From the NCBI GenBank assembly GCA_049512315.1, contig JBEKXF010000004.1, positions 62,001 through 89,143 on the forward strand: DNA of 27,143 nt. Reading direction: 5' to 3'. The notes beneath the pieces were generated by a model, which was given only the letters and a program-made list of their open reading frames with translations, was not told the origin of the DNA and ran no database searches. Each line of letters starts with the position of its first letter. Position 1 is the stretch's first letter. The position numbers were made by a program, and so were the translations under genes. This DNA is from Candidatus Aminicenantales bacterium (GTDB lineage Bacteria > Acidobacteriota > Aminicenantia > Aminicenantales > Saccharicenantaceae). Below are positions 18,401 through 26,740 of this stretch, piece by piece.

Positions 18401-19054
18401 TCAGGACTTGGGGACGATCCTGAACCGGATCCGCTTGGAAACGGCAGTCAGAGTGCCGTCGGCCTTGAACGCCTGAACTTGCCAGGAATACGTCACGCCG
18501 GCCTTCAGCCGGGCCCTGAAGTCGTCGGTCAGGACCAACCGCGTATCCTTGGTCGAGGCGGTCATGAGGGGGGATCTTCCGGCCAGGGAGACCTTGTACT
18601 CCAGATCGTCGCCGGCGCTTTTCCATTCGAGGAAAGCCGGGGCCTCCTGGATGTCGGCGACCGGCGAGACGAGCGTCACGGCGCCGCCGCGGACCGTTTC
18701 GTCCTCGGTGAGGACGAGCGGCGGGGGGACGGTCCCGGCCCGGGGGTGAAGGAGCCAGACGGCGATGAAGAGCACCACGGCCGAGACGCCGGCCACGACC
18801 CAGCGGCGGGGGGTGAGGAAGGCCCAGGTCCTTCGGACCCGTGAACCCGCCCGCGAGCCCTCGGCGAGATCCCCGGACAGGGCGCTCATGACGCCCTCCT
18901 TCCTGAGGATCTGGATGATTTCGTCCCTCTCGGATATCTTGGAAAAGCACGAGCGGCAGATGAAGTAATGCTCTTCGAAATCGGTCTGTTCTTCGGGCTT
19001 CAGCTTGTCCAGGAGATAGCCGTCGATCAGGCCCTCATAGCGGCATTTGGTCAT
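18401..19054 (-). CDS. Probable ZAS (zf-HC2) transmembrane anti-sigma factor
   Basis: N-terminal FEEHYFICRSC (H-x3-C-x2-C), one TM helix (WVVAGVSAVVLFIAVWLL), C-terminal beta-rich FN3/Ig-like segment (YSWQVQA); downstream of an ECF sigma. Confidence 0.8.
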   Translation of the reverse strand: MTKCRYEGLIDGYLLDKLKPEEQTDFEEHYFICRSCFSKISERDEIIQILRKEGVMSALSGDLAEGSRAGSRVRRTWAFLTPRRWVVAGVSAVVLFIAVWLLHPRAGTVPPPLVLTEDETVRGGAVTLVSPVADIQEAPAFLEWKSAGDDLEYKVSLAGRSPLMTASTKDTRLVLTDDFRARLKAGVTYSWQVQAFKADGTLTAVSKRIRFRIVPKS

Positions 19055-23240: not shown

Positions 23241-23274
23241 CCCGGGCCGGGGGTTTGACAAGGGCCCGGGTTTT
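23241..23274 (+). terminator. Possible intrinsic terminator hairpin after the small peptide
   Basis: CCCGGGCC(23241-23248)/GGCCCGGG(23263-23270) stem, 14-nt loop, followed by TTTT. Confidence 0.35.
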
Positions 23275-23283
23275 CAATACATT
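23255..23283 (+). promoter_or_regulatory. Putative sigma70 promoter for receiver protein-accD-folC
   Basis: TTGACA(23255-23260)-17 bp-TACATT(23278-23283). Confidence 0.6.
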
Positions 23284-23300
23284 ACATTGAGCGTCCGCCC

Positions 23301-23777
23301 ATGGCCGAAAAGAAAATATTGATCATCGACTATGACGCCCAGAGCCTGGACTCTCTGACCAAGCTGGTCAAATCGCAGAAGATCCAGGTCGTCACCGCCC
23401 CCGACGGCCAGGCCGGCTACGAAAAATTCCGCTCGGAGAGGCCGGACCTCGTCATCCTGGAGGCGATCCTGCCCAAGGTCCACGGCTTCGACCTGACGAA
23501 GAAGATCACCCAGGAGTCCGGCGGCCAGGTGCCCGTCGTGATCGTGACGGGCCTTTACAAGGGGCCCCAGTACCGGCACGAGGCGATCGCTACGTTCGGA
23601 GCGTCGGACTATTTCGAGAAGCCGGTGGACCCCGACCGCTTCATCGAAACGGTCCGGCAGCTGATGCGCGACGAAGAAGAGATCGAGGAAACCCTCCCCG
23701 ACCCGGCCACGGTCATCGAGAACCTTTCCCAGCGGGTGAGGGATAAGGCCGCCCAGGGAAAGGGGAAAGATGACTAG
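23301..23777 (+). CDS. Single-domain atypical response regulator receiver (Asp-less)
   Basis: CheY-like pattern KILIID..., PDLVILEAILPKVHG, VVIVTG, GASDYFEKP; Glu occupies the phospho-Asp position. Confidence 0.85.
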   Translation: MAEKKILIIDYDAQSLDSLTKLVKSQKIQVVTAPDGQAGYEKFRSERPDLVILEAILPKVHGFDLTKKITQESGGQVPVVIVTGLYKGPQYRHEAIATFGASDYFEKPVDPDRFIETVRQLMRDEEEIEETLPDPATVIENLSQRVRDKAAQGKGKDD

Positions 23778-23795: not shown

Positions 23796-24587
23796 ATGAC
23801 GAGCCTCTGGAGCCGCTGCAACAACTGCCAGCACATCCTCTACAAGCAGGACATCCTCGACAACCTCTATGTCTGCCCGTCCTGCAATTTCCATTTCCGG
23901 ATCTCGGCTGAGGACCGGCTCGGGATGCTGTTCGACGACGGAACGTACGAAGTCCAGGACGCCGGCATCCACTCCGTCGACGCCCTCCATTTCGTCGACA
24001 CGAAACGGTACGTCGACCGGCTCGCCGAGAGCGAGCAGAAGGTGGGCCTCGCGGAAGCCATCATCACGGCCAGGGGAACGATGGCTGGCATCCCCATCTA
24101 CGTTCTGGCCATGGAATTCGGCTTCCTGGGCGGGAGCGTGGCCTCGGTGGTCGGTGAAAAGATCGCTCGGGCCTGCGAACGGGCCATCGAGGAGCACCGC
24201 CCCGTCATTATCGTTTCCTGCTCCGGCGGCATGCGGATGCAGGAGGGGATGCTCTCGCTCATGCAGATGGCCAAGACGAGCGCGGCCATCGCCCGGCTCG
24301 GCGAGGCAAAGCTTCCCTACATTTCGGTCATGGCCGACCCGACGACGGGGGGAACGACGGCCAGCTTCGCCATGCTCGGCGACATCAACATTGCCGAGCC
24401 CCAGGCCCTGATCGGGTTCGCCGGCCCGCGCGTCATCGAACAGACGATCAAGGAAAAGCTTCCCAAGGGCTTCCAGAGGGCGGAATTCCTCCTCAGCCAC
24501 GGGATGCTCGATGACGTCGTCGAACGAAAAAGCCTGAGGCCTTACCTGATCAAAGCCCTCCGCCTCTTCCTCAACTGGCCTCAATGA
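23796..24587 (+). CDS. accD: Acetyl-CoA carboxylase carboxyltransferase beta subunit
   Basis: Zn finger LWSRCNNC...VCPSC, FLGGS, SGGMRMQEG, PTTGGTTASFAMLGD, GFAGPRVIEQT. Confidence 0.96.
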   Translation: MTSLWSRCNNCQHILYKQDILDNLYVCPSCNFHFRISAEDRLGMLFDDGTYEVQDAGIHSVDALHFVDTKRYVDRLAESEQKVGLAEAIITARGTMAGIPIYVLAMEFGFLGGSVASVVGEKIARACERAIEEHRPVIIVSCSGGMRMQEGMLSLMQMAKTSAAIARLGEAKLPYISVMADPTTGGTTASFAMLGDINIAEPQALIGFAGPRVIEQTIKEKLPKGFQRAEFLLSHGMLDDVVERKSLRPYLIKALRLFLNWPQ

Positions 24588-25876
24588 ACCCCGGTGAGTG
24601 CCGGGACTATCTCGGCCATCTCCAGCATTTTGGCATCAAGCTCGGCCTCGAGAACATTACCATTCTCCTCGCGGCCCTGGGCGACCCGCACCGGAGCTTC
24701 CCGGCCGTCCACGTGGCAGGGACCAACGGCAAGGGCTCGGTCTCGGCCATGCTCGACAGGATCCTCCGGAACCACGGATTCCGCACCGGCCTCTACACCT
24801 CCCCCCATCTCGTGAGCGTCGAGGAGAGGGTCCGGGTCAACGGCGAGCGGATCGGGCCCGGGAAATTTTGTGTCCTCCTCGACCGGATCAGAGAGACGAT
24901 TGACGACTTGATGGCGGCCGGGTGCCTCGTCTACCATCCGACGTTCTTCGAGGTCCTGACCGCTCTCGCCTTCCTCCAGTTCGCGGATCGGAAGGTGGAC
25001 GTCGCGGTTCTCGAGACGGGAATGGGCGGCCGCTTCGACGCCACGAACGTCGTCCGGCCCCTCGTCTCCGTGATTACGACGATCTCCCGGGACCACGAGA
25101 AGCATCTGGGTTCGACGCTCCGGCAGATCGCCTTTGAAAAGGCCGGCATCGTCAAGCCCGGCGTCCCGGTCGTCTGCGGGGTCCCGAAGGGCGTCGCTCT
25201 CGGGGTCATCCGCCGCCGCGCCCGCGAGCTCAAGGCCCCCTTCGTCCACGTCTTCGGGCCGCGGACGGCTTTCGAAGGTCGGCGAGCTGGCGCGGGCTTC
25301 CGTTTCCGCTACGCGAGCGGAGCGGACGAGTACATTTTCGCCCCGGCCCTGGCCGGCCGCTATCAGGGCGAGAACGCCGCCGTCGCTATCGCCGCTGCCG
25401 AGATCCTCAGCCGGGTCTGGCGGCCGCTCCAGAAGTCGAAGATCGTCCGCGGCGTCCGCGAGGCGCGCTGGGAAGGCCGGCTGGAAACGGTTTCCCGAAG
25501 GCCCCTGGTCATCCTTGACGGCGCCCATAACGTAGAGGGGGCCGGGTCCCTGGCCGCCCATATCAAGAACGTGATCAGGAGGCCGGTCATCCTCGTCTTT
25601 GCGGCCATGAAGGACAAGGACATCCGGAAGATGGCCCGGCTTCTCTTCCCCCAGGCCCGGACCGTCATCCTGAGCCAGGTCCCCTACAAGCGCTCGGCCC
25701 TGCCGGCCGAGATCCTGGAATCAGCCCGGGAATTCAAGGACAGGATCCTCCTCCAGCCGGACGTGACGAAAGCCGTATGCCTGGCCCTGGCCGAGTCGGC
25801 GTGCCGGACCCCTGTCGTCATCGCCGGCTCCCTCTTCCTCGTCGGCGAAGTCAAGAAGCTCCGGCTGTTCAGCTAG
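24584..25876 (+). CDS. folC: Folylpolyglutamate synthase/dihydrofolate synthase
   Basis: HVAGTNGKGS, YTSPHL, ETGMGGRFDATN, DGAHN, GSLFLVG; follows accD. Confidence 0.96.
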   Translation: MNPGECRDYLGHLQHFGIKLGLENITILLAALGDPHRSFPAVHVAGTNGKGSVSAMLDRILRNHGFRTGLYTSPHLVSVEERVRVNGERIGPGKFCVLLDRIRETIDDLMAAGCLVYHPTFFEVLTALAFLQFADRKVDVAVLETGMGGRFDATNVVRPLVSVITTISRDHEKHLGSTLRQIAFEKAGIVKPGVPVVCGVPKGVALGVIRRRARELKAPFVHVFGPRTAFEGRRAGAGFRFRYASGADEYIFAPALAGRYQGENAAVAIAAAEILSRVWRPLQKSKIVRGVREARWEGRLETVSRRPLVILDGAHNVEGAGSLAAHIKNVIRRPVILVFAAMKDKDIRKMARLLFPQARTVILSQVPYKRSALPAEILESAREFKDRILLQPDVTKAVCLALAESACRTPVVIAGSLFLVGEVKKLRLFS

Positions 25877-25945
25877 CTCCGGCGGCCACGCAAAAACGAT
25901 TTCAGAAAAATAAATGGGTGGCACGGTGCCAGTCCCCGCTTGATA

Positions 25946-26237
25946 AGGGCCTCGGGGGATGGTCGGAACGTCACAAGGCGGATGTGCCTTCCCGAATCGT
26001 TGTTAGAGGAAGAGGCGGACGCAGGGGGGATGTCCCGGAGAAAACATTGAGCGCGACGCGGGCACGGTTCCTCGAGTGTAGCGAGAGGAGAGCGGAGCGA
26101 TCACAGAGTGGGATTCCTCGCTGGGGAATCCCACGTTTTTCGGAGGGACTCCCTCCGAGTCCGCAACCTCCAGAAGAAACGATTCGGGAACGGCGTGAAA
26201 AACCGCGCTCTGGAGTGGAGGCCATCCCCGGGGCCCT
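25946..26237 (+). other. ~290-nt nested inverted-repeat element (candidate structured ncRNA or non-autonomous mobile element)
   Basis: Pairings: 25946-25964 with 26220-26237 (18 bp, two G-U, one bulge); 25989-26001 with 26178-26190 (13 bp perfect); 26015-26020 with 26159-26164; local hairpins 26108-26134 and 26140-26158. Confidence 0.7.
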
Positions 26238-26261
26238 GCAGAGCGAGAGTCCAGGCCAAGG

Positions 26262-26290
26262 TTGATTTTTAACCCCAATGGCGTTAGAAT
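26262..26290 (+). promoter_or_regulatory. Putative sigma70 promoter of the atp operon
   Basis: TTGATT(26262-26267)-17 bp-TAGAAT(26285-26290). Confidence 0.55.
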
Positions 26291-26320
26291 TTCCCTTACT
26301 TTGACACCCGGAATAGGCGA

Positions 26321-26740
26321 TTGAATATAGTCCCTGACGCGACCGTCTTCGTCACGTTCGCCCTCGTCTGGATCCTCGTTCTCGTCCTGTCGCGCGTTTT
26401 CTTCAAGCCCGTCCGGCGCATCCTCGACGAGCGGGCCTCGCGGATCGAAAAGGCGAAGGCGGAGACCGAGAAGACCCTGGCGGCCTATGAACAGGACCTC
26501 CGGCGGATCGAGGACGGCCTGAAGGAGGCCCGGGCCTCGGCGGCCGGGATCCGGGAGCAGGCCGAGCTCGAGGCGCTGAAGGAGAAGAGCCGGCTCCTCC
26601 AGGAGATCCAGGTCGAGTGCCGGGCCCAGGTGGACAAGGCCAAGGCCGAGCTCGACCAACGGGTCGAGACGCTCAAGAAAGAGCTCGACCGAACGACCGA
26701 AGAGCTCTCCGGGGATATCGAGCGAAGGATCCTGAACTGA
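26321..26740 (+). CDS. F0F1 ATP synthase subunit b-prime (AtpF family)
   Basis: TTG start; N-terminal TM, FFKPVRRILDER, charged coiled coil; first of two tandem b-type genes. Confidence 0.85.
   Translation: MNIVPDATVFVTFALVWILVLVLSRVFFKPVRRILDERASRIEKAKAETEKTLAAYEQDLRRIEDGLKEARASAAGIREQAELEALKEKSRLLQEIQVECRAQVDKAKAELDQRVETLKKELDRTTEELSGDIERRILN

Follow-up and report, generated by a model that had tools for sequence, protein, structure and literature searches.

The rod-like element in the folC-atp spacer belongs to a dispersed, structured repeat family of the Aminicenantales

The window, that is the whole 27,143-nt stretch of DNA that was analysed, carries on its + strand a folC-like Mur-ligase gene followed by the genes of the ATP synthase, and the spacer between them contains a rod-like element of 292 nt (25946-26237). 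This rod is a nested composite, with outer arms enclosing a 156-nt core. The features of the locus and the modules of the element are as follows (all on the + strand):

24584..25876, + strand: upstream neighbour, a folC-like Mur-ligase gene (ORF with Pfam domains Mur_ligase_M and Mur_ligase_C)
25913..25939, + strand: upstream motif with the small palindrome GGCACGGTGCC, which recurs elsewhere in the genome
25946..26014, + strand: outer left arm (OL), which supplies the 5' halves of the closing stem and of the 13-bp stem and, between them, an internal loop bearing a small hairpin
26015..26170, + strand: core of 156 nt, modelled as helices P1-P3 followed by a three-way junction bearing the P4/a1 arm and the a2 hairpin
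26015..26067, + strand: M1, the 5' module of the core, with the 5' strands of P1, P2, P3 and P4 and the near-invariant GCGGGCAYGG loop
26068..26140, + strand: centre A, containing hairpins a1 and a2
26069..26089, + strand: a1 hairpin, hypervariable yet always paired, here TCCTC..GAGGA with tandem G.A/A.G
26108..26134, + strand: a2 hairpin of 12 bp, with the conserved apical CUC-GCY-GGG and a conserved U.G pair
26141..26170, + strand: M4, the 3' module of the core, with the 3' strands of P2 and P1 and the conserved CCGAG
about 26171..26237, + strand: outer right arm (OR), which supplies the 3' halves of the 13-bp stem and of the closing stem and, between them, a side hairpin (GGCGTGAAAAACCGCGC)
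26262..26290, + strand: promoter-like site of the atp operon, outside the element and, in the alignment of orthologous spacers, kept in congeners with or without the element
26321..26740, + strand: downstream neighbour, an ATP synthase B/B' subunit gene (ORF with Pfam domain ATP-synt_B)

All the helices named in a preliminary description of this DNA were found in the sequence and in the minimum free energy (MFE) fold of 25946-26237, including the long closing stem, the 13-bp stem (TTCCCGAATCGTT/AACGATTCGGGAA), GCGGAC/GTCCGC, GGGGGGATGTCCC/GGGACTCCCTCC, AAAAC/GTTTT, TCCTC/GAGGA and the 12-bp hairpin at 26108-26134. The + strand RNA had an MFE of -156.9 kcal/mol (z = -8.13; 200 dinucleotide shuffles, -116.5 ± 5.0, none of which equalled it), compared with -136.9 kcal/mol (z = -6.83) for the - strand, which makes the + strand the better folder and agrees with the selected + strand fold that had been proposed from the G-U pairs. 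The element ends 24 nt before the predicted -35 box of the atp operon, which belongs to a sigma-70-like site (TTGATT-17-TAGAAT, 26262-26290). The view that the element holds no credible ORF was also upheld: the overlapping ORFs were mechanical, a codon-usage gene caller returned no gene, and homologous copies differed by hairpin swaps and module insertions, which suits a coding region poorly.

No match to the Rfam 15 covariance models was obtained in the whole window at the gathering thresholds. In E-value mode, the interval 25800-26400 gave two matches only (E = 3.7 and 4.4), both to eukaryotic lncRNA families and with scores of 14.1 and 12.2 bits where the cut-offs are 50 and 70. The element fell in none of the Rfam 15 families, including 6S, tmRNA, RNase P, SRP, HEARO and the self-cleaving ribozymes, and nothing usable emerged to change the first impression, formed from the letters alone, that it matched no tRNA, tmRNA, RNase P or SRP.

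A search of the element's own 3.55-Mb assembly with a 381-nt query taken around it yielded 53 matches (E ≤ 10), the self match and two self-inverted matches included, and BLASTN in this genome returned 38 HSPs. Alignment of 14 loci resolved them into a modular family, in which M1 had 15 BLAST hits in the genome (88-100% identity), M4 21, OL 8, OR 7 and centre A 7, as well as 28 for an alternative centre of 126 nt (B). The core had 13 covariance-model matches in the same genome. Copy number had been proposed beforehand as the observation that would favour a mobile repeat, and the many dispersed copies (53 matches, 13 cores) gave the positive outcome.

Architectures were compiled from the own genome and from 76 loci fetched with a 21-nt core word (27 species-genome, 43 metagenome). 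They comprised M1-A-M4, M1-B-M4, M1-a1-B-M4, OL-M1-A-M4-OR, OL and OR around other cargo, and solo B, M4 or OR. Across the own genome and the fetched loci, 67 copies possessed both M1 and M4, with spans of 99-286 nt, and a gene between M1 and M4 was found in 0 of the 67 copies, a count that covers fetched loci only. The same 21-nt word also matched a contig of a MAG labelled Patescibacteria, over 23 nt only and in 44%-GC DNA, which, roughly estimated, is about what chance would give in a database of such size.

As a single-stranded + strand, the core is modelled as three stacked helices (P1-P3) ending in a three-way junction with arms a1 and a2. The covariance model was derived from 19 copies of the genus and a 53-pair structure, and it matched the core of the window with 184.4 bits over model positions 1-156 (G000:C4:88015-88170). 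Among 22 distinct 156-nt cores of the genus, the mean pairwise identity was 94.7% outside a1 and 74.7% inside it. The 18 sequence variants of a1 all fold as hairpins, all 9 of the 9 pairs of its helix (helix 6) were changed on both sides, and covariation was present in 9 of the 11 pairs of the a2 stem (helix 8). BLAST in relatives added copies from other genera and families at 70-79% identity. On inspection, these distant copies kept the order of the motifs and had changed helix sequences. They were matched by the model at full length (positions 1-156) with 40-100 bits, the full-length matches lying on one strand only.

The covariation analysis suggested in the preliminary description covered 47 matched copies, of which some 40 came from other genomes. 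Standard pairs occupied 92.2% of cells, compared with 41-52% when the partners were slid by 1-3 columns, both-side changes were present in 49 of the 53 pairs, and the covariation score was 0.581, compared with 0.07-0.095 in the slid controls and with none of 500 shuffles reaching 0.581, in an alignment that was fitted to the covariance model and so is biased toward the modelled structure. An independent MAFFT/RNAalifold run, made earlier, gave compensatory changes in 19 of 26 predicted pairs. Several motifs were invariant or near-invariant, namely the unpaired GCA/GAG internal loop between P1 and P2, GCGGGCAYGG and GAGAGCG flanking a1, CUC-GCY-GGG at the a2 apex, and CCGAG, and the U.G pair at the a2 apex was conserved in 37 of the 47 copies. 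With this pair left out, the stems contained 44 G.U against 17 A.C, which gives modest support for the modelled + strand as the folding strand. In the window's genus, a2 (26108-26134) is followed by GTTTTT, the T-run of which is the 3' strand of P3; together they form an intrinsic-terminator pattern, and in other genera the T-run becomes GTCTTC-like.

The outer arms are a second palindromic module, less conserved than the core. In 10 sequences, OL/OR pairing was kept in 76% of cells compared with 39-47% in slid controls, and the covariation was weak (score 0.158, with one slid control at 0.145). The arms also flank different cargo, in which a terminator-like hairpin reads the same in both directions. 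The OR tail was the most abundant piece in congeners, one copy from a different family of the order carried an OR-like motif, and copies in other genera likewise sit at the apex of an outer inverted repeat. The rod owes its length to this placing of hairpin modules on the apices of other ones.

The orthologous folC-atp spacer was located in six of seven congeners; in the seventh, the fetched locus, which contains Ns, had no atp gene. The closest congener (FolC C-terminus 89% identical) had an empty spacer of ~65 nt, so that an empty site in a relative, which the preliminary description had proposed to look for, was found at this very locus. The spacer of a second congener contained a B-type piece and an OR tail, and those of the remaining congeners contained short pieces or other GC-rich palindromes, with the atp promoter conserved in all the spacers found. 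Full 292-nt composites with 86-94% identity occurred at unrelated loci in two congeners, and no direct repeats flanking them were seen by eye.

Occupancy was then compared from the side of the closest congener, from which 13 copies were fetched and 12 placed in the present genome by their flanks (78-96% identical). At these 12 sites the present genome had an intact core in one case, the same M1-only piece in one, a solo M4 in three and no module in seven, one of which had an incomplete flank alignment. Where M4 was the only module detected by BLAST, the element of the congener was longer in all three cases, two of them full and one internally deleted. At one of these sites the alignment showed a short hairpin, the remainder of the same element after a larger internal deletion; the other two sites kept the M4 part, followed by other sequence. 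Six filled/empty comparisons between congeners gave inserts of 209-494 nt. The junctions were clean in three of them (0-2 nt between or shared by the flank alignments), and in the other three 8-29 nt of unrelated sequence lay at the empty site. No consistent target-site duplication was present in the six pairs. In one of the comparisons with an 8-29-nt junction, a possible repeat of 7-8 nt was noted by eye only.

The single shared intact locus carried different a1 types in the two genomes, which points to conversion between copies or re-occupation of the site. As the a1 types differ, gene conversion, rather than transposition, could explain part of the homogeneity of the family. The turnover of loci, together with the empty orthologous spacer, implies that no single copy is needed at its locus.

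Across the order, the core model matched 87 of 151 sampled genomes, distributed over 46 of 60 genera, with up to at least 19 matches per genome and at least ~755 tallied in all. No match was found in 150 other genomes of the phylum, 11 of them from the same class, a result that also serves as a specificity control for the core model. Within the order, the model gave no match in the genera g7 (0/17), g25 (0/7) and g11 (0/4). One genome from another family of the order provided 18 fetched copies that were near-identical over ~165 nt and had unrelated, AT-rich flanks. No promoter was conserved at a fixed distance from these 18 copies, and the two middle pairs of their terminal stem varied, remaining complementary in most copies. 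The family appears undescribed, as the listings and abstracts consulted on Aminicenantes contained no description of such a repeat.

The module clusters were nearly all intergenic, with 5 of 47 overlapping a called gene by more than 30 nt according to a crude codon-usage caller. Pfam annotation of 57 ORFs beside 15 copies in the own genome identified metabolic and housekeeping genes and no mobile-element genes, and 60 ORFs at 27 loci of other genomes encoded housekeeping functions and one Phage_integrase domain. The 13 cores of the own genome lay in five convergent, five tandem and three divergent spacers, and among the five tandem ones three were co-oriented with their neighbours and two antisense. 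Elsewhere, 41 of 61 loci could be classified, including 19 tandem (11 co-oriented and 8 antisense), 12 convergent and 10 divergent spacers. The orientation of the element relative to neighbouring genes looks random, and two copies 4 kb apart on the same contig had opposite orientations. Core orientation followed the local GC skew in 6 of 13 cases, a test of little power, as this genome has a weak skew (mean |skew| 0.015) that does not correlate with gene strand.

Three runs labelled metatranscriptomic contained element-only contigs of 268, 227 and 161 nt. They derive from other copies (12-17 differences), and two of the runs were flagged as probably DNA; the 161-nt contig, from an RNA-Seq metatranscriptome, covers the core only and may reflect DNA carry-over. 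Such contigs carry no strand, ends or level, and as repeat contigs break at repeat borders, their uncovered flanks are uninformative on transcription.

Genes that could mobilise the family were searched for. The Y1_Tnp domain had six matches in the own genome, flanked by other repeat families or by none and never by modules of the element. Across the order it was present in 127 of 151 genomes, including every genome of the element-free genera g7 (17/17), g25 (7/7) and g11 (4/4), and it was missing from at least 16 element-bearing genomes, one of which is a single-contig genome. Y1/RAYT was rejected as the mobiliser on account of the other repeats at its flanks and its lack of co-occurrence with the element. 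The TnpB domain PF07282 had no match in the own genome, and RVT_1 had none in the own genome or in five element-rich genomes. IS110 had three matches in the own genome, none beside a module, and was present in two of the five element-rich genomes. TnpB, reverse transcriptase and IS110 were accordingly discarded as mobilisers, being absent or neither adjacent to nor co-occurring with the element, with the qualification that an absent gene is weak evidence in metagenome assemblies that are 88-97% complete.

It is near certain that the rod belongs to a dispersed, structured family that spans the order. The preferred reading, to which a little better than an even chance is assigned, is that it is one copy of a dispersed intergenic repeat, confined as sampled to a single order of Candidatus Aminicenantes, which behaves as a REPIN/MITE-type, non-autonomous and structure-dependent mobile element whose loops are read by a trans factor. 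The mobile, trans-factor mechanism taken alone is rated as about an even bet. A non-autonomous mobile element was among the possibilities raised in the preliminary description, and it fits best the many dispersed copies and the difference in site occupancy between congeners. Under such a mechanism, mobility would be an active process with the folded, single-stranded + strand as its presumed substrate. New copies would arise in intergenic spacers without target-site duplication, old copies would decay by internal deletion into solo hairpins, and the invariant loop nucleotides would form the recognition surface for a putative trans-acting factor. The copy in the folC-atp spacer would then be a passenger, at most an incidental terminator or insulator before the atp promoter. 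A single-stranded process at the DNA level is preferred because the unit lacks a promoter, is oriented without regard to transcription and can be missing from any given locus.

In population behaviour, REPIN-RAYT can be regarded, by analogy, as the closest known system. In the parts of the literature consulted, REPINs are intergenic hairpin repeats with similar copies within a genome, lineage-wide persistence and no target-site duplication (PMC3337134, PMC3116915, bioRxiv 10.1101/2022.05.22.493013). Like REPIN/REP-RAYT units, the copies of the present family are many, intergenic, non-coding, hairpin-forming and very similar within a genome, so that they share the multi-copy palindromic character of that group; as far as those same parts of the literature go, they also resemble REPINs in their lineage-wide persistence, which suggests vertical inheritance, in their lack of target-site duplication and in the compensatory changes that keep the hairpin. 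Unlike REPINs, which consist of paired inverted REPs of 20-40 nt, the element has a 156-nt core within a 292-nt composite, a three-way junction and invariant loops. Moreover, no RAYT is flanked by the element and the presence of Y1_Tnp does not track it; as this enzyme link was tested and not found, the element was not filed with REPIN-RAYT.

Other repeat classes show partial likeness. Bacterial MITEs include Correia/NEMIS, ERIC and Nezha. Like MITEs (reviewed in PMC3184786 and PMC10969869), the element is short, non-coding and dispersed, with a long stem-loop, nested insertion and variability between close relatives. It differs from them in having no consistent target-site duplication in six comparisons and no parent insertion sequence with the same ends in 67 copies, and in conserving a covarying sequence and structure across the order, far beyond the needs of terminal inverted repeats. 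The comparison extends to mosaic repeats, of which the BIMEs of enterobacteria and the BOX elements of Streptococcus pneumoniae are examples. Like these, to which no sequence relation is expected, the family combines few modules (outer arms, M1, a1, a2 or B, M4) into several intergenic architectures, but where BIME and BOX modules lie side by side, those of the element nest at hairpin apices, and its core junction is conserved and tertiary-looking. Several systems with dedicated enzymes compare poorly: IS200/IS605-derived PATE or TnpB guide RNAs, given no PF07282, no co-occurrence with Y1 and opposite orientations 4 kb apart; retrons, group II introns and SINE-like elements, given no RVT_1 in the own and five element-rich genomes; and IS110 target or bridge-RNA elements, given no IS110 beside modules and its presence in two of five element-rich genomes. 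The copies are scattered among housekeeping genes, and this does not resemble the cassette arrays of integron attC sites.

Several points weigh against the mobile reading. The uniform conservation of intact copies and the order-wide invariance of the loops would be explained equally well by purifying selection for a host function; the three-way junction, the triloop, the conserved U.G and the tandem G.A look more RNA-like than known DNA transposon ends; the searches for Y1, TnpB, RVT_1 and IS110 found no mobilising enzyme; and gene conversion may account for part of the homogeneity, given the a1 types at the shared locus. The first two lead to the strongest alternative, which is considered rather unlikely: a structured RNA that exists in many copies and serves the host, is transcribed through read-through or by nearby promoters, and has a junction and loops that would bind a protein or ligand, perhaps as a signal for sequestration or processing. 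The conserved U.G (37/47), the tandem G.A, the conserved triloop, the three-way junction and the excess of G.U over A.C (44 vs 17) would be natural in such an RNA, as would loop motifs that are invariant across the order and the few point changes in intact copies, and the 161-nt core-only contig from an RNA-Seq metatranscriptome is compatible with its transcription, allowing for its origin from another copy and for possible DNA carry-over. Against it, the repeated unit has no conserved promoter or terminator, about 40% of the copies in tandem spacers are antisense to both neighbours, and the occupied loci change from one close congener to another, with an empty orthologous spacer in the closest of them. 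In addition, twenty dispersed copies are unusual for a bacterial small RNA.

A REP/BIME-like element retained for generic cis effects (3'-end protection, termination, insulation or a site for nucleoid proteins) and spread by recombination rather than dedicated transposition was judged improbable, more so than the multi-copy RNA. It would account for copies that were counted as strictly intergenic, for modules that combine as a mosaic, and for the convergent spacers (5/13 in the own genome, 12/41 classified loci elsewhere); the terminator pattern of a2 and the T-run in the window's genus and the terminator-like hairpin, identical in both directions, in the other cargo of the outer arms also agree with it. 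A generic hairpin role, however, leaves the three-way junction and the invariant unpaired nucleotides unexplained, the T-run after a2 is not kept outside the genus, and between folC and atp the closest congener lacks any hairpin.

A single-copy regulatory RNA specific to the folC-atp spacer, either 6S-like or an atp leader, suggested by a stable rod immediately upstream of the atp promoter, has a negligible probability and was ruled out by copy number (13 matches in the own genome, at least ~755 across the order) and by the empty orthologous site, the congener spacers being empty or differently filled with the atp promoter conserved, and neither 6S nor any other Rfam family matched. The element resembles 6S and other rod-like small RNAs in being a long imperfect rod of ~200-300 nt; it departs from 6S in its lack of an Rfam match, its many copies, its apical three-way junction in place of a large central bubble mimicking an open promoter, and a locus that is not conserved. 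Of the other proposal in the preliminary description, an undescribed structured RNA, possibly 6S-like, the undescribed structured family therefore stands (no Rfam match, covariation) and the single-copy 6S-like gene falls (13 cores, three-way junction, no conserved promoter).

Dispersed palindromic repeats are known in cultured bacteria, and long-lived families with a defined mobiliser, such as REPIN-RAYT, are few. To our knowledge, no long-lived repeat family has a covarying three-way junction and invariant loops. In the present case, the family is abundant and well defined in an uncultured order. With a chance well short of even, the core may represent a new class of bacterial genomic replicator, a ~160-nt fold that persists across the order in many copies per genome without a linked Y1, TnpB, IS110 or reverse transcriptase and is copied by a putative structure-reading enzyme of the host or of an element; it would be equally novel if the copies made up a new class of RNA whose conserved junction binds a ligand or protein. 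The family raises a testable question, namely what reads the core fold, and its presence or absence over 151 genomes (87 with and 64 without) can serve directly for phyletic profiling in search of the partner. For annotation, rod-like intergenic folds in Aminicenantales genomes should be checked for copy number before being described as locus-specific small RNAs.

Upstream of the element, a sigma-54 promoter was considered at the palindrome TGGCACGG..GC and rejected by eye, as the GG-GC spacing is 8 and not the 12 of the sigma-54 consensus. The motif at 25913-25939 is terminator-like on the - strand only. It had separate matches in four other contigs of the own genome, and in several other copies of the element it lies at a short, variable distance upstream of the outer left arm.

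Module B, the alternative 126-nt centre of the repeat family, also forms an independent repeat: it has 28 BLAST matches in G000, the genome to which the window belongs, where it is frequently reduced to its final 87 nt. Examples of its copies, all lying outside the window, are:

G000 C7:18770-18895, copy of module B
G000 C3:16216-16307, copy of module B
G000 C8:56703-56789, copy of module B

Based on crude gene calls in G000, the gene upstream had the same orientation as module B in 13 of the 16 stand-alone copies, and this prevailing co-orientation suggests that module B is an element of the 3'-UTR or terminator side, separate from the core (the 156-nt structured repeat).

The outer left and right arms (OL/OR) that enclose the core in the rod were also found around different cargo, at G000 C38:18375-18673 and at the fetched loci L066, L072, L074 and L093. 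This alternative cargo contains an A-run, a hairpin and a T-run, resembling a terminator that reads in both directions, and in one copy from another family the core was nested within its arms. In G052, a genome from another family of the same order (loci L163-L180), a further dispersed short repeat, resembling TGAATAATYCAGG, occurs as direct or inverted pairs in the flanks of the core copies, and many of the core copies lie between the T-run/A-run arms of an outer inverted repeat.

A regex search recovered four copies of a diverged core subfamily (M1'/M4', after the 5' and 3' modules of the core), in which the motifs follow each other as in the core and the GGGCACGG loop is kept, but helix P2 and the linker differ in sequence. 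These include:

G000 C9:~25430-25700, diverged core (M1'/M4')
G000 C16:~18640-18860, diverged core (M1'/M4')

At the sole orthologous locus with an intact core in both congeners (G000 C3:183888-184043 vs L181:2001-2156), the hypervariable a1 hairpin was of a different type and the remainder was alike, a pattern hinting that conversion between core copies may occur. A contig of a MAG labelled Patescibacteria (L039, the same DNA as L090:2101-2921), with a GC of 0.44, has one exact 23-nt word in common with the core and nothing else; by a rough estimate, such a match is at about the level expected by chance in a collection this large.

G000 also possesses RAYT-like Y1_Tnp genes with ORFs 151-260 aa long; each is flanked by its own AT-richer repeat family of up to ~30 copies across the genome:

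G000 C18:60520-60569 and 61398-61442, Y1_Tnp-flanking repeats
G000 C6:22042-22115 and 23259-23306, Y1_Tnp-flanking repeats
G000 C15:35733-35845, Y1_Tnp-flanking repeat

Together, these genes and repeats look like classical REP/RAYT systems coexisting with the core family.

Concerning the surroundings of the rod, the atp promoter-like site (TTGATTTTT..N..TAGAAT-like; window 26262-26300) is kept in sequence across the orthologous folC-atp spacers of congeners (L020-L026) whatever fills the spacer, the closest congener deviating in the -35 region only. Upstream, a motif with the palindrome GGCACGGTGCC (window 25913-25939), often followed by an A/T-rich ATAAR immediately before the rod, recurs on further contigs, and several outer-arm copies have it on their upstream side; it could represent either a target preference or a part of the element.
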